From a virus (taxonomy: Duplodnaviria; Caudoviricetes): 63,943 nt of DNA. Under the pieces are notes generated by a model, which saw only the letters and a list, made by a program, of their open reading frames with translations, did no database searches and was not told the DNA's origin. The stretch is taken from positions 1 through 63,943 of the IMG/VR virus record IMGVR_UViG_3300025103_002730. One strand, written 5' to 3'. The position numbers and the translations under genes were made by a program. Within the stretch, counting starts at the first letter, position 1. Each line of letters opens with the position of its first letter. This document shows, in pieces, positions 27,786 to 59,513 of the stretch.

Positions 27786-29345
27786 TCAGATTTCGTGAAT
27801 TTTGTTTACAATGAAGGAATTATCCTGCTCTACGTCACCGCACAGCATTAGGTTGTTGCCCTCATAAAGAATGAACCTGTACTTTTCTCTGGTCTCAGGA
27901 AATACCACGACGCTATCAAGAGAACAGGAAGCGTCTTCAACGGTTAGGAATGACATGAGTTTGCCAAAGTTCTTGCCCTGCTTCTTGATCTTGAAGTTGT
28001 TCATCCTTGTGATGTTCACTACAAGACAGATATCCTTACCAAACTTCCCATTCGCGATATCCTTACATGAAGTGTTGGAGATAGACGTATCGACCGCTTC
28101 GACTTCACTTAGGGAAACTGGACAGCCCAAGAACTTCTTTTCCATCTCGACGATCCAAGAAGGGTCATCCGACATTCCGTATGGTGGGCTTGCCAGCATA
28201 CCCACTTCGTTCAGGACGATCTGACTACGGTTGGCGTTACTGGTCCCTCCACCCATCTTCTTTGTAGGAGACAGGTCTTGAAAACACTCACCAAGGGTTT
28301 CCCATCGTTTTTCCGGATACTGCGTTGTAACCCACTTCATTTCCGCCTTAGTCAGTTCACGGAATATAAGGTATTCGTACAGTGCCTTATTTCTGCTCAC
28401 ACCGGTAGATTTGGTAGAGAAAAACCCAATAGAACACAGGGCTTTGAAAGCAGTACTAGTTATGTTGGGAGCAATGTATAATAGAACATCCATCCAAGTG
28501 AATTCTTCCGGCTTCTTCTGCGACTCCCATACCGCAGCACCAATAGCCCTCACTACCTTGTCGCCAGTGACCCCAGTAAGACCCTTAACATCCTTGACCC
28601 CAAAGAACACGTCTCTACCCACACGCTCAAATTTCAGACCAAAAGAGGTTAGATTTGGCGACTTCACCTCAATGTCAAACAGTTTAGCCTCAGAGACCAG
28701 TTCATAGATCTCCTGATGGGTATCCTGTTTTTCATTCGCGTGGTATAGGTAAGACGTGAAGAACTCAACCGTGTGATTAGCCTTGTACCAAGCTGACCAA
28801 TAGGAGTCCTTAGCGTAAGCCACAGCGTGAGACTTATTGAATGAGTAACGAGACGACTTCTCGATCCAGCCAAAGATTTCCCTAGCAGTAACATCGTCTA
28901 CTATCCCAACTTTCTCACAACCCTTGATAAACTGCTCACGGATTTCCATCATCAGCTTGGCTTTCTTCTTTCCGATAGCCTTACGTAGATAGTCCGATTC
29001 CTGCTCGGTGAAACCTGCCAGCTTCACGGCGATACGCATCGCCTGCTCTTGATAGACCAACACCCCATAAGTCGTATTGAGAATATCTGCAAGAGAGTCA
29101 TGAAGGTAGGTTACCTCTTCTCGGCCAGCCTTACGGTCAACAAAACGCTGACTCATAGATTTGCCGTCAACGATAGCCTTTAAACATCCCGGTCTAATGA
29201 TCGCGATGAGTGCTGCCAACTCTTCAATATTGCTGGGTGCAACCTTCTTAGACCAAGACCTCCCAAGGTTACTCTCCAGTTGGAAAACACCCTTAGTAAG
29301 ACCGTTATGATACAAAGCCCACGTTTTTTCGTCTCTTAGATCCAT
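27786..29345 (-). CDS. dnaE: DNA polymerase III alpha subunit, C-terminal half
   Basis: 'GVFQLES', 'ALIAIIRPG', 'TYGVLVYQEQAM', 'LRKAIGKKK', 'YSFNKSHAVAY', and C-terminal OB fold 'MSFLTVEDAS...VVVFPE'. Confidence 0.9.
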   Translation of the reverse strand: MDLRDEKTWALYHNGLTKGVFQLESNLGRSWSKKVAPSNIEELAALIAIIRPGCLKAIVDGKSMSQRFVDRKAGREEVTYLHDSLADILNTTYGVLVYQEQAMRIAVKLAGFTEQESDYLRKAIGKKKAKLMMEIREQFIKGCEKVGIVDDVTAREIFGWIEKSSRYSFNKSHAVAYAKDSYWSAWYKANHTVEFFTSYLYHANEKQDTHQEIYELVSEAKLFDIEVKSPNLTSFGLKFERVGRDVFFGVKDVKGLTGVTGDKVVRAIGAAVWESQKKPEEFTWMDVLLYIAPNITSTAFKALCSIGFFSTKSTGVSRNKALYEYLIFRELTKAEMKWVTTQYPEKRWETLGECFQDLSPTKKMGGGTSNANRSQIVLNEVGMLASPPYGMSDDPSWIVEMEKKFLGCPVSLSEVEAVDTSISNTSCKDIANGKFGKDICLVVNITRMNNFKIKKQGKNFGKLMSFLTVEDASCSLDSVVVFPETREKYRFILYEGNNLMLCGDVEQDNSFIVNKIHEI

Positions 29346-31497: not shown

Positions 31498-33153
31498 TCA
31501 ATTTCCTATTAATTCCCTCACATACATCAATTTATCTAGGAGATTTATCCCGAGAACATCGAATTTCACATGTCCTAGTGCCTCTAGGTCGTTCATTTCA
31601 AGACCGGCAATCTTCTCGCCTCCACTTTTCTGGTTAACCATAGGGCATACCTCGTGAAGCGGTAGAGCAGAGATCACAACACCAGCGGCGTGCTTACCCT
31701 GTGTCTTGAAGGTTCCCTCAAGATCAATAGCTTGTTGGAAGTATTCAGCATAGTCACCGTGCAGTACACCTTCATCGTCAATATAGCAGTAGTCCCTAAG
31801 GTCGTCTGCATTATTCAGAAGTGCCCACCGGATTATAGAGCGATCCTCTTCGTCCATTAGTGCTAACTGGTCGGATATAGCGGCCTCGTCAGGTATGTAC
31901 TTGGTAATGTAGTTCATCTCACCAAACCCACAGGCTTCGTTCACACGTAGAATCTCTTTGATTGCACTGCGACCCTGTAGCCTACCAAAAGTACACATTT
32001 GGCTAACGTTCTCGGCACCATACCTGTTCTTCAACTCCTGAATGATTTCATCACGCTTACCCGTAGGAACGTCCATGTCAATATCGGGTAGGGACACATG
32101 ATCTTCTGTGTTACGACCGTCGTTGTAGAAACGCTCAAAGATAAGAGCAAACTCAATAGGGTCGATCATGGTGATCTTCATGAGGTAGGAGATCAGACAC
32201 CCAGCAGCAGACCCTCTCCCCGGACCAACCATCCAGCCGTTACTACGGCAGAAGTTGAGAATATCCCAAACGATAAGGAAGTAACCTGAGAGATTAGCAT
32301 TCTCTATAACCTTGAGTTCTCTGTCGTAGCGTGCCCTGTATTCTACACAGTTATCAGATGTAATAGTGCCGTCTTTCTCTAGCTCCAACCAGCCCTCTTT
32401 ACACAATTCTACCAGATACTCACCTTCGCTGTAACCAACAGGACAGGGGAATTTAGGAAGCATTGGCTTACTGAGGATATTGTAGTTCTCACACTTGTCA
32501 AAGATCTCATCGAAGATATCCATCTTAGGATCATCCACTAGAATCTGTGCGGCCTCCATCCTGTCTTTTATGTAGAATTCGCTACACTCGAAGAACATCT
32601 GGTAGTCAGTAATGTCAGTGTTGTTTCGGATCAGTTGGAGACCGGGGATGACGTATATCCGCTTTACTTGTGACATAGTCTTCTTTAGGTGACCACATAT
32701 CAAAACCCTGTGCAGTTCAGCTTGATCTCTCTCTACGTAATACGTATTTGGGAAAGCAGAACTCTTCTGATAGAAGTCTTCACCTGAGATTGGTGAGACA
32801 GAGGGATCTCTAGCCAGACAGATTAGGTTACCCTGATTAGCCAGCTTGACCAATAGCCCAGTGTCAACATTTCCCCTGTCGTCGAGGGTGGACACGATGC
32901 GGATTAGTTCCAACCAACCTTCTTTGTTCTTAGCAAAGAGGGTGAAACCATCAAACGTACAACCAATGATTGGCTTGATATCGTTCGCTATGCAGGCTTG
33001 GTAAAAAGAAACGGCTCCGGAGATTGACTTGTAATCAGCTATCCCGCAGGCCCGATAAGAATTCTCTGAGCATTTTTTAGCTAGTTGTTTGGGCTTTGAG
33101 AAGGCTCGCTGTAGAGAATAGTGCGTGTAATTGCACAACGGAAACCACTTCAT
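31498..33153 (-). CDS. dnaE: DNA polymerase III alpha subunit, N-terminal half (PHP + palm/thumb)
   Basis: PHP 'HYS...IKPIIG', 'GPGRGSAAG', 'FERF', catalytic 'PDIDMD', 'GKHAAGVVI', 'VKFDVLG'. Confidence 0.92.
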   Translation of the reverse strand: MKWFPLCNYTHYSLQRAFSKPKQLAKKCSENSYRACGIADYKSISGAVSFYQACIANDIKPIIGCTFDGFTLFAKNKEGWLELIRIVSTLDDRGNVDTGLLVKLANQGNLICLARDPSVSPISGEDFYQKSSAFPNTYYVERDQAELHRVLICGHLKKTMSQVKRIYVIPGLQLIRNNTDITDYQMFFECSEFYIKDRMEAAQILVDDPKMDIFDEIFDKCENYNILSKPMLPKFPCPVGYSEGEYLVELCKEGWLELEKDGTITSDNCVEYRARYDRELKVIENANLSGYFLIVWDILNFCRSNGWMVGPGRGSAAGCLISYLMKITMIDPIEFALIFERFYNDGRNTEDHVSLPDIDMDVPTGKRDEIIQELKNRYGAENVSQMCTFGRLQGRSAIKEILRVNEACGFGEMNYITKYIPDEAAISDQLALMDEEDRSIIRWALLNNADDLRDYCYIDDEGVLHGDYAEYFQQAIDLEGTFKTQGKHAAGVVISALPLHEVCPMVNQKSGGEKIAGLEMNDLEALGHVKFDVLGINLLDKLMYVRELIGN

Positions 33154-56108: not shown

Positions 56109-56465
56109 CTACCCGTCTGAATTCTTATTCCTCGGCGTAATCTGTGATGGATCAGGACCAAGGGAGATATCGTCTGCCATAATACAGACGGAACTTTTCT
56201 TGTTCTTTTCTTCATCCTCGTAGTTGTCAATCTTTAGCTTACCAGTAATAGCTACGCAACGGCCCCTAAGAAGCATAGGATTGAGGTTTTCTGCCATCTT
56301 ACCAAAACATAAAACATTGATAAACAACGTGTCATCGTTACGATGATCATTGACGGCTAACCTAAACTTAGACATGGACGTTCCCTTTCTCGTCGCTCCA
56401 AATTCCGCATCGCTAGTTAGCCGACCTGCTCCGTTCCAACAATTCTGATTCATCTGATACTCCAA
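56109..56465 (-). CDS. ssb: Single-stranded DNA-binding protein
   Basis: 'GRLTSDAE', 'FRLAVN', 'FINVLCFGKMAE', 'GRCVAITGKL..DNYED'. Confidence 0.88.
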   Translation of the reverse strand: MEYQMNQNCWNGAGRLTSDAEFGATRKGTSMSKFRLAVNDHRNDDTLFINVLCFGKMAENLNPMLLRGRCVAITGKLKIDNYEDEEKNKKSSVCIMADDISLGPDPSQITPRNKNSDG

Positions 56466-56788: not shown

Positions 56789-56815
56789 AAAAAAGACCGG
56801 CCCAAAAGCCGGTCT
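56789..56815 (-). terminator. Rho-independent terminator
   Basis: AGACCGGC-TTTTGG-GCCGGTCT followed by a T run. Confidence 0.8.
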
Positions 56816-56831
56816 CGGGTGTTTAAGCATT

Positions 56832-57212
56832 CTATCTTGAGTAATGCTTCAAAGTACGGTATTGGAAGGGTACAATAGCGACCCCTGCTACGGACCTACG
56901 CCGTTCCAACTCCCGTTGCTGTGCCTCAATTTCTTCTTTCTGACGCTGAATGATAGCGTTTTTACAGCGAACCCTCTTAACCGCACAGAGTTCCTCAGAC
57001 GTGATAAACGCTGGAACCCTACGTGTCGTCAGTGACGACTTCAGACGAGACTTCATCAGGCAAAACCGCTCCTTCAGTTTCACACAGATAGACGGACGCT
57101 CAACGACGTACATCGCTGGCACTACCACTTGAACCTCAGTAACACAGGGATCATCCGCCCGTGCTGAACTCACTGAAGCTACCAGAGTAGCAAACAAAAT
57201 AAGACCTCTCAT
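56832..57212 (-). CDS. Secreted hypothetical protein
   Basis: Signal peptide ending ARA; RBS AAGGA. Confidence 0.55.
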   Translation of the reverse strand: MRGLILFATLVASVSSARADDPCVTEVQVVVPAMYVVERPSICVKLKERFCLMKSRLKSSLTTRRVPAFITSEELCAVKRVRCKNAIIQRQKEEIEAQQRELERRRSVAGVAIVPFQYRTLKHYSR

Positions 57213-57265
57213 ACTTAATTCCTTTCTAAAAGATCAAAAACCGATGGAGACCGTGGTAAAAGAAT

Positions 57266-57539
57266 TGGAGGCGGCGGAAGTCGAATCCGCGTGTTGTATA
57301 GGTTTCAAAATCAACAGTTTTTACATGTTTAGTGCCTAAGGCACGGTTCTTGCTGTTAGCGATAGTTCCCGAAGGATCTCTCTATGGTCGGGTGATGAGG
57401 CCCATAGAAGCCTCACAGCCTACGCTGCAAGTGCAAAAGAGTTTACAGTTATCGTTTGGTGTGGTTTTTAGCTAGCCCCCACGCCACCTAGCACATGTTG
57501 TTGAAGTCTCCGTCTACCAATCAATTCCAGTACGCCCCC
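57266..57539 (-). ncRNA. ssrA: tmRNA, compact 274 nt, tag (A)VNSFALAA*
   Basis: Acceptor GGGGGCG/CGCCUCC-A with a G3-U pair, T-arm GCGGA-UUCGACU-UCCGC, and 'AUAACU' before the tag ORF GUA AAC UCU UUU GCA CUU GCA GCG UAG at 57446-57420. Confidence 0.92.
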
Positions 57540-57565
57540 GTACTACTTAGTCCGCAAGCGGACAG

Positions 57566-57674
57566 TGTGATTGACAGGAGTCGAACCTGCATAAACCGAC
57601 CTGACACCCAATTTATGGGAAATAATACGAGAGTCAGGGTGAGTCGCCAATTGTCTCATTACGGCCACAATCAC
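57566..57674 (-). ncRNA. tRNA-like RNA with expanded D-loop and anticodon loop
   Basis: Perfect acceptor GUGAUUG/CAAUCAC-A, T-arm GCAGG-UUCGACU-CCUGU, anticodon stem CCUGAC/GUCAGG closing a ~27-nt loop. Confidence 0.7.
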
Positions 57675-57943
57675 AAAAAACAACAACTGAACAGGGCTTC
57701 TCACCCCTACATCATACCTACCTTCACTGGGATTTAACCCTCCACCGGCTGATTCAATTGTTACCTCCGTAGTTTTGTAGGCAGTCAGCCTACTTCAATC
57801 ATCGGGATTTAGAGGAACACCCGACTAGCCAGCGACAACTGGCGTGGCTCTACTTGAATAGCTTGGTAAAGCTATCCTTAGTCAACTTATCCACAGAGAA
57901 GTCTAGGACTTCATCGAGTTTAGGAACCCCTGTTGTCTCATGT

Positions 57944-57972
57944 ATTATAGTCTACTTGACCCTGTTTGTCAA
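57944..57972 (-). promoter_or_regulatory. Consensus sigma-70 promoter driving the ncRNA/tmRNA operon
   Basis: TTGACA-17 nt-TATAAT with an A-rich upstream element. Confidence 0.88.
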
Positions 57973-58060: not shown

Positions 58061-58231
58061 TTATTTGTCCTTTTCTGAGATTAAGCAACATTTTTTGAAC
58101 TTGAGACCGCTGCTACACGGGCACGGCTCGTTGCGACCAACTTTCCCACGTTTTTTCTGTAGTTCACGCTCGGATTTCTCCATCGCTTCGATGATATCCA
58201 TCGCGTGTATTTCTCCAGATCGCGTATCCAT
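58061..58231 (-). CDS. 56-aa SEC-C motif protein (absent from the ORF track)
   Basis: MDTRSGEI...[27 protein letters not shown]. Confidence 0.8.
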
Positions 58232-58557: not shown

Positions 58558-58773
58558 TCATCTAAAGTATCTTCTTGTTAAGTTAGCGAGTGTTAAAACC
58601 GCGAAGAAGGCCGATAACAAACATGTCAACACAGCCATAACCGCGTTGTGATGATAAGCACTAAGAAAGAAGAGGAATAAGTAGATTACTAAGCATATTA
58701 TGCTCATAATCAGTTCTACTACGTTGGATGTATCTGGACCCTGTTCATACTTAGGAGGGTCATATGGACTCAT
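58558..58773 (-). CDS. Small two-TM membrane protein
   Basis: Two long hydrophobic helices. Confidence 0.55.
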   Translation of the reverse strand: MSPYDPPKYEQGPDTSNVVELIMSIICLVIYLFLFFLSAYHHNAVMAVLTCLLSAFFAVLTLANLTRRYFR

Positions 58774-59351
58774 TCCAGAAACTTCTTAATTGTACTGAGG
58801 CCAGCCCCATTGATCATTTGGGGTGTTCCACCCGATTGTACGGCAACTATAGCACCCTTATATTGAGCAGATGCTCCAGATAATCCATTTACAGCCTTTC
58901 CATGTGCCGTCCATAGATGCTCACCATCAGTTGTCGTCCACCCCTTATCGTAAGTGGTGTAGTTGTGTTTTTGTTTGTCTAAGTAATGATAACCCGTAAC
59001 ATTTACCGTGGTGTATTTTTGCGGCTCTTTATCTGCGAGGGGAACCGCCTCCACCTCTATTTTACCCTTGACCTCCACCAACGCTAAGTCCCACACCTTA
59101 TGCTGCTTCAGTAACTTTGCTGGAAATGAACACTCATTCCCTTTGTGGTAGAAAGATACACTTGTTGTTTGGTTTGGTATTAGAAAAAATCCGCGACCAC
59201 ATGTTAATATGAGGGTTTTTTCATCGTCTGATTCTATCACGGTCCCAGAGAACGAAGCACCCTCCTCACGGTGGACCCTTACAACTGAGTCAAAATCTTC
59301 AGCCACGATGGGCATCAGGAGTAAGAAAAACGTGATTAGACTCTTGAACAT
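58770..59351 (-). CDS. Secreted trypsin-like serine protease homolog
   Basis: Signal peptide (MFKSLITFFLLLMPIVA), 'SGTVI', 'LILTCGR', 'DLALV', 'GLSGAS'. Confidence 0.7.
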   Translation of the reverse strand: MFKSLITFFLLLMPIVAEDFDSVVRVHREEGASFSGTVIESDDEKTLILTCGRGFFLIPNQTTSVSFYHKGNECSFPAKLLKQHKVWDLALVEVKGKIEVEAVPLADKEPQKYTTVNVTGYHYLDKQKHNYTTYDKGWTTTDGEHLWTAHGKAVNGLSGASAQYKGAIVAVQSGGTPQMINGAGLSTIKKFLE

Positions 59352-59390
59352 ATTATGGTTTCCTTTACTATCCTTTGTTTTGAAAAAACT

Positions 59391-59511
59391 TAACGCAATG
59401 GGATTTGAACCCATAACACCATCACCCAACCTATCACAGCCAGTCACTGGCACCGTCTCAGGACGGCGTGTCTACTAACAGGAATCGCTTCCGGTATTTC
59501 CACCATGCGTT
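59391..59511 (-). ncRNA. Expanded/degenerate tRNA-like RNA (~120 nt)
   Basis: AACGCA/UGCGUU acceptor, T-arm AUGGG-UUCAAAU-CCCAU, hairpin inserted in the D-loop, non-canonical anticodon arm CCGUC-CUGA-GACGG, very long variable region. Confidence 0.6.
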
Positions 59512-59513
59512 AA

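Follow-up and report, generated by a model that had tools for sequence, protein, structure and literature searches.

What is transcribed from a consensus promoter that stands ahead of a transfer-messenger RNA (tmRNA) gene in a marine phage, and how many of the elements between the two are functional? The locus lies at 57266-57972, on the minus strand, of IMG/VR virus record IMGVR_UViG_3300025103_002730. The window is the whole of this record, 63,943 bases without end repeats. A sequence-only reading had described the locus as a dedicated operon of non-coding RNAs, with a promoter, a hairpin-rich leader, two tRNA-like RNAs and a tmRNA. On balance, it probably represents the promoter-proximal end of a transcription unit of the early type, comparable in kind to the tRNA and stable-RNA clusters of T4 and T5. 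Its promoter and tmRNA are of a known kind, and its one tRNA-like RNA is a new example of phage tRNA-like stable RNAs. Beyond the tmRNA, function is something that we infer.

The block was compared with a second haplotype found on three contigs (L002/L004/L017, L003/L005/L018 and L012), which are mutually identical at the block and 94% identical to the window over 57235-57848. There are only these two haplotypes, that of the window and that of L002/L003/L012. The features are given below in the order of transcription, with the basis of each and, where counted, its differences from L002.

57944..57972, minus strand: sigma-70-type consensus promoter, TTGACA-17-TATAAT; 12/12 match, conserved in L002.
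57916..57943, minus strand: start of the transcript; alignment and BLAST segments against L002.
57850..57915, minus strand: gene remnant, the last 21 codons and stop of a 585-amino-acid gene; 97% identical to L002:3010-3075, 2/66 differences.
57777..57843, minus strand: three hairpins of 6 bp (57843-57828, 57825-57801 and 57793-57777); fold, z = -1.6; 1/85 differences over the segment.
57676..57768, minus strand: domain closed by a 17-bp helix; RNAalifold consensus of the two haplotypes, 10/89 differences.
57566..57674, minus strand: RNA of 109 nt, most likely tRNA-derived; fold, acceptor/T-arm scan and L002 comparison, 0/109 differences.
57540..57565, minus strand: spacer with the hairpin GUCCGC-UU-GCGGAC; alignment with L002, 16/26 differences.
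57263..57539, minus strand: one-piece, shortened tmRNA, a 277-nt Rfam match with the mature RNA at 57266-57539; Rfam RF00023 and ARAGORN, 9/277 differences.
56832..57212, minus strand: open reading frame (ORF) of 126 amino acids with a hydrophobic N-terminus; ORF list, 89% identical in relatives.
56793..56816, minus strand: intrinsic-terminator-like hairpin, 10 bp followed by a U-run; first strong terminator on the strand, also matched by the terminator-like ends of small RNA (sRNA) models.

The window contains three perfect TTGACA-17-TATAAT sites, all on the minus strand, where shuffled sequences give an expectation of 0.06. Relatives carry several perfect sites per 8 kb on the gene strand. 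These sites are genuine, strong promoters of host type, such as are commonly termed early, and the one ahead of the block stands exactly where the sequence-only reading had placed it. That reading is also supported in its view of a strong host-type promoter ahead of a co-oriented, non-coding RNA block ending in tmRNA. The block of about 680 nt contains no family-supported ORF; the four largest (80, 57, 53 and 47 amino acids) gave no Pfam match below E 0.1 and no PHROG match. The claim that no credible coding sequence follows the promoter holds to this extent, but 57850-57915 is the 3' remnant of a protein gene. Rfam, riboswitches and ribozymes included, offers nothing credible at E<=10 for the upstream part of the block, and a comparison of this part with the rest of the window gave T-arm matches only.

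The transcription unit probably does not end with the tmRNA. The 126-amino-acid ORF behind it, which has no Pfam or PHROG match, carries an AAGGA stretch shortly ahead of its ATG and is probably co-transcribed with the RNA block. Between the tmRNA and this ORF, the sequence showed neither a terminator-like nor a promoter-like site, and the likely end of the unit is the terminator-like hairpin at 56816-56793. Because no terminator separates the two, the unit is not purely non-coding, and the description of a dedicated non-coding RNA operon does not fit it.

The tmRNA is real, as had been proposed. It matches RF00023 over the full length of the model (positions 1-374) with 50.5 bits against a gathering score of 47 (E 5.7e-17), and its orthologue in L002 scores 52.2 bits. 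With lowered thresholds, ARAGORN places the tmRNA at 57266-57539 with the tag VNSFALAA and a stop. The ends pair as GGGGGCG/CGCCUCC in a 7-bp acceptor stem that contains G3:U70 (columns 30-36 with 296-302). The T arm, GCGGA-UUCGACU-UCCGC, is canonical, pseudoknot 1 (PK1) is present, and the gene encodes no CCA. The RNA lacks most of what the Rfam model has as its PK2-PK4 region. The tag frame, at 57446-57420, reads GUA AAC UCU UUU GCA CUU GCA GCG UAG and ends in ALAA; its resume codon is GUA, as against GCA in relatives, and the tag aligns with the relatives' ANESFALAA (L028) and ANESLALAA. The differences between the haplotypes include a change of the stop from TAG to TAA, and RNAalifold identifies two compensatory pairs in a pseudoknot-like helix after the tag.

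A permuted two-piece organization was considered for the window gene and rejected. The permuted model RF04321 gives 13.1 bits (E 5.4, at 57420-57617), below its threshold of 47, and 18.6 bits in L002. The 3' strand of the tRNA-like RNA, CAAUCAC, is not complementary to the 5' strand of the tmRNA, GGGGGCG, and the modules stand in the standard order. The closest counterpart found for the 5' half of the window tmRNA is that of L010, a 1,336-nt phage-like metagenome contig whose first ~80 bases resemble a sequencing adapter. L010 carries a tRNA-Ser, a TTGACA-17-TATAAT promoter similar to the window's, a tRNA-Arg, a small ORF and a full-length one-piece tmRNA (114 bits, tag GETQLALAA, ~354 nt as against 277 in the window). 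The 5' halves align with a local score of 61 (z 20), whereas the permuted coding pieces give 21-33 (z 2-7). L010 was found through an identical 23-mer at the 3' end, and only the 5' comparison is unbiased. As a separate observation, L012:1141-1210 is a 71-nt copy (83% identity) of the 5' part of the tmRNA, from the acceptor strand through PK1. It immediately precedes tRNA-Leu(UAG) at a distance of ~5.4 kb from the real tmRNA, and the window has no such copy.

Directly ahead of the spacer, the 109 nt at 57566-57674 fold as a cloverleaf with a perfect 7-bp acceptor stem (GUGAUUG/CAAUCAC), a 4-bp D stem and a T arm (GCAGG-UUCGACU-CCUGU) joined straight to the 3' strand of the acceptor. The discriminator is A, and CCA is not encoded. 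Of the 55 nt between the D and T arms, 52 fold as an irregular arm that replaces the anticodon arm; neither the minimum-energy nor the centroid fold has a 5-bp anticodon stem with a 7-nt loop. In the D loop, G-A stands at the place of G18-G19, and the T arm is identical to that of the window's tRNA-Leu at 19/19 positions. With a covariance model built from this RNA (R2), 15 canonical tRNAs align by their acceptor, D and T arms, and the middle appears as a deletion. Default ARAGORN makes no call here, and the Rfam tRNA model (RF00005, threshold 29 bits) gives no match on 57566-57674 at E<=10 in a search of 1.6 kb. The cloverleaf fold and the acceptor/T-arm scan bear out the expanded tRNA-like RNA that had been proposed at this place.

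No substitution separates the haplotypes in this RNA, and the sequences on its two sides differ by 11% and ~60%. Since diverged sequence flanks it on both sides, the tRNA-like RNA looks constrained. Sequence and fold indicate that it is most likely tRNA-derived and not a decoding tRNA. It most likely serves as a processing and stability module or as a stable tRNA mimic. The earlier suggestion of a decoy for anticodon nucleases is unlikely, as the fold has no 7-nt anticodon loop. A small-ORF reading of the 109 nt was also rejected: the 53-amino-acid ORF has different ends in L002, belongs to no family and shows no synonymous variation. The spacer that follows has kept its hairpin in L002, as AACCAUUC-UG-AAUGGUU, in spite of its divergence.

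A second expanded tRNA-like element, of 122 nt, lies elsewhere in the window, at 59391-59512 (minus strand), directly after tRNA-Leu(UAG). It has a 7-bp acceptor (UAACGCA/UGCGUUA), a T arm (AUGGG-UUCAAAU-CCCAU) and a long central arm. Only at -ps90 does ARAGORN report the element, as a tRNA-Arg(CCU) with a 35-nt intron; in L012 it is absent at the corresponding place. A 227-amino-acid ORF (58770-59453) begins with a GTG inside this element. Because its GTG start falls there, the true start of the ORF is probably the internal ATG (MFKSLI...).

Upstream of the tRNA-like RNA, 57676-57843 is a lineage-specific structured segment, as judged from the sequence. The middle of its three hairpins (57825-57801) has the loop GUUCCUCUAAA, and the single difference from L002 in the three-hairpin segment changes G:C to G:U. 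The 3' strand of the 17-bp helix is a U-rich run, UUGUUGUUUUUU, immediately before the tRNA-like RNA. Of the nine substituted columns in this domain, seven belong to the outer helix, where every pair is preserved; one pair is changed on both sides (A:U to G:C) and five on one side. A covariance model of the domain (R1) finds the orthologue and, besides it, only a plain terminator hairpin in L042 (16.1 bits, E 0.8). A scan for the intrinsic-terminator consensus does not list 57676-57768, and the U-run itself is paired in the outer helix. The structural model suggests that the domain is probably an sRNA 3' end or a leaky terminator. The sequence-only reading had placed a T-loop-bearing RNA here, at 57683-57763. 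The structure in question is GGG-UUAAAU-CCC, 3 bp with a 6-nt loop and no UUCRA, and neither Rfam tRNA nor R2 nor ARAGORN, whose thresholds were also lowered, calls a tRNA on 57683-57763. The block has one tRNA-like RNA, at 57566-57674, and not two. The description of a hairpin-dense segment fares poorly as well, with folding z values between -0.7 and -1.85.

The leader, described as hairpin-rich, is largely a deletion scar. Positions 57921-57943 are common to the relatives and contain the 5' half of a hairpin with a GUUCCU loop, the 3' half of which was lost in the deletion; 57916-57920 are junction bases. The next stretch, 57850-57915, translates to DEVLDFSVDKLTKDSFTKLFK and a stop, which is the C-terminus of an ORF that is intact in relatives (L002:1318-3075), and both differences from L002 are at third codon positions. 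In the relatives, ~2.1 kb that are missing from the window lie between the promoter and the RNA block. They contain an expanded tRNA (L002:940-1052), a weak tRNA-like RNA, several GUUCCU-loop hairpins and the 585-amino-acid ORF. An additional insert of 142 nt is found in relatives at window position 57849. As far as the sequences tell, the window lineage lost the 2.1 kb, because the tail of an ORF cannot predate its ORF, and the loss was probably recent.

The 585-amino-acid ORF belongs to a viral protein family of ~640 amino acids without a named domain. A sequence search of the PDB gave nothing for it. The Atlas contains it in unnamed viral clusters only, with a lead to TerD at 22% of the members of one cluster. 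A Ro60/Y-RNA relationship of this ORF and its adjoining RNAs was considered and dropped, with no TROVE and no other Pfam or PHROG match. Of the RNAs beside it, L002:940-1052 is a tRNA with 51 bits in Rfam, whose anticodon-loop region has 49 nt against 9 in the model. Adjoining it, L002:1063-1137 is a weak tRNA-like RNA (13.5 bits) with an encoded CCA at its end. The recurrent hairpins have a loop that begins GUUCCU(A/C)U.AA and stems that co-vary (GGGG/CCCC and AGAG/CUCU). They occur at L012:3998-4339 and 6353 and in the window at 57808-57818 and 57921-57927, one whole copy and one truncated. The pattern GTTCCTNTNAA occurs four times in L012 against 0.13 expected, although it was picked after the matches had been seen. 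Rfam gives no support for a ribozyme in this hairpin, which matches no known family.

Assembled contigs of the L002 haplotype from two seawater metatranscriptome runs, belonging to two studies, cover parts of the RNA block. One contig (X18, 355 nt) covers 57334-57680, including the tRNA-like RNA. Contigs of the other run (X20) cover 57307-57477, and 57722-57848 together with 114 nt of the 142-nt insert. Within the 1.5 kb compared, only 57307-57680 and 57722-57848 are covered, and the gaps (57681-57721 and the flanking genes) were not counted as evidence. These contigs are a weak hint of expression.

More distant relatives were collected with the SSB protein (56109-56465), which gave 44 IMG/VR loci at 55-96% identity, the 42 more distant being L019-L060. 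The genes orf84, SSB and orf142 are syntenic in many of the 44, and the common order at the slot is tmRNA, small gene, orf84, SSB. ARAGORN finds a permuted tmRNA in 5 of the 44 loci. Eighteen of the 42 were submitted to Rfam; eight of these pass the threshold of RF04321, three of the eight also match alpha_tmRNA (RF01849), and no one-piece tmRNA match was found among the 18. A permuted two-piece tmRNA lies upstream of SSB in L021, L023, L024, L025, L028, L030, L032 and L034, with the tags AEPCLALAA, ADESLALAA, ANESFALAA and ANESLALAA. Ordinary tRNAs adjoin the tmRNA in relatives, such as tRNA-Val in L032 and tRNA-Gly and tRNA-Asp in L030. The window tmRNA shares with the permuted ones its 3' acceptor strand and the P2 'AAACAUGUA' stretch, and the end of its tag, GCACUUGCAGCGUA, is common with L028. 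In L028, a bare T-arm fragment and then the same spacer hairpin precede the permuted tmRNA. BLAST in the 42 loci returned two short matches only, the tmRNA 3' end in L024 and the T arm with spacer in L028. The upstream block aligned with the 3' parts of the permuted tmRNAs no better than shuffled sequences did. On sequence evidence, one syntenic slot appears to carry either tmRNA topology in this clade, most simply through replacement. As a side observation, L021:3154-3331, just after the SSB gene, is a manA RNA motif (RF01745, 59.5 bits against 55.2); Rfam finds none in the window.

Taken together, these results can be arranged as a series of elements that the consensus host-type promoter would drive as a whole. 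Its short leader would be the scar of the recent ~2.1 kb deletion that removed an expanded tRNA, hairpin RNAs and the 585-amino-acid gene. The lineage-specific three hairpins and the domain with the helix-closed U-run would follow, the latter a probable sRNA 3' end or leaky terminator. Then would come the tRNA-derived RNA, in which the acceptor/T-arm half is kept and a long arm replaces the anticodon arm, followed by the hairpin spacer and the shortened one-piece tmRNA. The last element would probably be the next small protein gene, up to the terminator. Host RNase P would cut the 5' ends of the tRNA-like RNA and the tmRNA, and host enzymes would trim their 3' ends and supply the CCA that both genes lack. 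The alanyl-tRNA synthetase of the host would charge the tmRNA through G3:U70. With host SmpB, which is assumed here, the tmRNA would free stalled ribosomes and tag proteins with (A)VNSFALAA.

The foremost alternative to such a stable-RNA cluster is that only the promoter and the tmRNA are functional, and that everything between is debris: a scar, leftover hairpins and a decaying tRNA pseudogene with an insertion. We consider this unlikely, and several points weigh against the reading that we prefer. The leader does contain a gene remnant, L028 has only its T-arm fragment at the corresponding position, and L012 carries a stray piece of tmRNA. The tRNA-like RNA fails the Rfam tRNA model and lacks G18-G19. 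Folding energies in the block are unexceptional (z -0.7 to about -2). Even the tmRNA is barely above the Rfam threshold and is missed by default ARAGORN. BLAST and local alignment found no counterparts of the upstream domains in the distant loci, and R1 and R2, each searched against 46 sources, found no helix-domain or expanded-arm counterpart in L019-L060. The upstream segments, whose conservation in related phages would have spoken for the earlier proposal, are thus confined to the nearest haplotype; that proposal does better with the RNA-library contigs, which cover them. These contigs come without ends, strand or level, and carry-over of DNA is possible. Conservation and covariation both derive from one pairwise comparison of two haplotypes. 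Third codon positions of four downstream genes differ at 89 of 473 sites (18.8%), and the remnant, expected to be neutral, at only two of 66, so identity here need not mean selection. Local background divergence may be below that of the downstream genes, or the region may have been exchanged recently. The argument from constraint is weakened for 57764-57915, including the three hairpins, because the adjacent and supposedly neutral remnant is almost equally conserved. It is less weakened for the tRNA-like RNA, because the flanks of that RNA are diverged. Decay should also have cost pairing, yet the acceptor (7/7) and T stem (5/5) are intact, all substitutions in the helix of 57676-57768 keep pairing, and the RNA-library contigs span parts between the promoter and the tmRNA.

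The proposal of a dedicated early multi-RNA operon, with two tRNA-like RNAs and a tmRNA that remodel host translation or decoy anticodon nucleases, now seems improbable. Its strong promoter, co-oriented RNAs and one conserved tRNA-like RNA stand, and the phage group has at least three different expanded tRNA-like genes (57566-57674, 59391-59512 and L002:940-1052). However, the second RNA has neither a T-loop nor a tRNA call, the fold of the first offers an anticodon nuclease no anticodon loop, the leader is partly a gene remnant, and the unit seems to continue into a protein gene. We give even less credit to a decoding tRNA at 57566-57674 with an intervening sequence removed after transcription, like the introns of Lak megaphages. 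ARAGORN in intron mode does give tRNA-Asn(AUU) there at its default threshold, with a 15-nt intron, L002:940-1052 scores 51 bits as a tRNA and has 49 nt in its anticodon-loop region, and phage tRNAs with conserved introns are reported in PMC6784885. Yet the ARAGORN model has a mismatched anticodon stem and breaks the D stem of the fold, and its intron lies at 32/33 instead of 37/38. It also requires a long, poorly paired variable arm and the rare anticodon AUU, and the Rfam tRNA model finds nothing. A bolder extension of the stable-RNA cluster can be hypothesized, although it is rather doubtful. The acceptor/T-arm RNAs, in three designs, may be under strong selection, may be cut and CCA-tailed as tRNAs are, and may act on the host through the top half of a tRNA. 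Host factors or defence toxins that recognize the acceptor end might be sequestered or misdirected by them, or the RNAs might assist in loading the adjacent tmRNA. Separately, and equally tentatively, the clade may record a swap or interconversion of tmRNA topology.

The window is 38% complete according to CheckV. Marine and seawater metagenomes contain its DNA; runs with small word shares were left aside, and the habitat is named no further than marine/seawater. Its proteins include a split DNA polymerase of the Pol III-alpha type, a DnaB-like helicase, glycosyltransferases and an HNH/homing endonuclease. The polymerase is encoded by two ORFs ~2 kb apart (27786-29345 and 31498-33153, minus strand) that match positions 627-1063 and 245-615 of phrog_405. 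Because both match consecutive parts of the same PHROG, the sequence indicates that the gene is split or interrupted. The polymerase is <30% identical to any record in the phage collection, and no cultured phage shares >60% protein identity for the polymerase or SSB. A blastn search of the same collection with an 861-nt block gave no match. The last 6 kb of the window contain a minus-strand tRNA cluster with Asp, Leu, Gly, Tyr and one weaker tRNA match. Immediately upstream of the promoter, a 56-amino-acid ORF (58061-58231, minus strand) has a metal-binding SEC-C motif (PF02810, E 2.4e-09).

When IMG/VR was scanned for exact matches to five stretches taken from the tmRNA and the tRNA-like RNA, only the same two contigs came up. 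A metagenome scan with the tmRNA 3' end added one further copy of the L002-type haplotype (L012), and also unrelated tmRNAs that share a 23-mer. A scan of genome contigs matched two metagenome-assembled genomes (Desulfobacteraceae and Bdellovibrionales), which were not taken as hosts. For the relatives, the three loci that pass the Alphaproteobacteria tmRNA model give a hint of alphaproteobacterial hosts. No SmpB gene (PF01668) was found in the 64-kb window or in a 111-kb relative (67% complete).

Phage tmRNAs and non-decoding tRNA-like stable RNAs have been known for decades. The locus adds a well-delimited tRNA-like stable RNA, under apparent selection, directly ahead of a tmRNA. With a slot that holds a one-piece or a permuted tmRNA, the clade is a natural comparison set for the change of tmRNA topology. 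There are also lessons for annotation. Default ARAGORN misses the tmRNA, a promoter-proximal 'leader' can be a gene remnant, and an apparent 227-amino-acid ORF begins inside a tRNA-like gene. The literature searched contains no description of the window's tRNA-like RNA or of an alternation of one-piece and two-piece tmRNA at one phage locus.

According to Buchholz et al. (PMC9004378), 402 of 18,146 phage genomes carry a tmRNA, mostly of the two-piece type in marine phages, and only 2.5% of one-piece phage tmRNAs are marine. That paper describes OM43 phage Melnitz, in which the tmRNA lies directly behind an early promoter, and a permuted two-piece tmRNA in Melnitz and 17 of 47 related contigs. 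Phage tmRNAs are also reported in huge phages (Al-Shayeb et al., PMC7162821), and the tRNAs of Lak megaphages have conserved 'enigmatic' introns (Devoto et al. 2019, PMC6784885). Melnitz and the window phage are both marine and have ssrA just downstream of a sigma-70-type promoter, with a tag that has a proteolysis-type end. The tmRNA of Melnitz is permuted and in two pieces, whereas that of the window is one-piece and shortened. No glutamine riboswitch was found in the window with Rfam, and with its split Pol III alpha-type polymerase the window phage is not Melnitz-like. The permuted tmRNAs of the RF04321 and RF01849 types differ from the window gene, whose modules run in the standard order, from the 5' acceptor strand to the T arm. 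They are alike in that relatives carry them at the syntenic slot and share modules.

Forner and co-workers reportedly described, in 2007, tRNA punctuation and t-elements, organellar tRNA-like structures that serve as RNase P and RNase Z processing signals. In the window, likewise, a module of acceptor and T arm that cannot decode lies between other RNAs of the same transcript. The t-element system is organellar, whereas cleavage in the window is only a proposal.

The species 1 and 2 RNAs of T4 are comparable to the RNAs of the T5 cluster. In T5, RNA1 (NC_005859, 30501-30644) is annotated as 'tRNA-like stable RNA with unknown functions' and sits in the tRNA cluster beside RNAI, RNAIII and RNA2H. 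Like the window RNA, it has other small structured RNAs as its neighbours. RNA1 is longer than the window RNA, at 144 nt, and has two central hairpins. The two have no sequence relationship, and R2 gives RNA1 14.3 bits, below the canonical T5 tRNAs. For T5, the RNA is recorded as accumulating in stable form, whereas the window RNA is known from sequence and contigs. In fold, RNA1 resembles the window RNA: it has an acceptor stem and a T arm, its D arm is Leu-like, and its middle is expanded. Both are non-decoding RNAs in a tRNA cluster.

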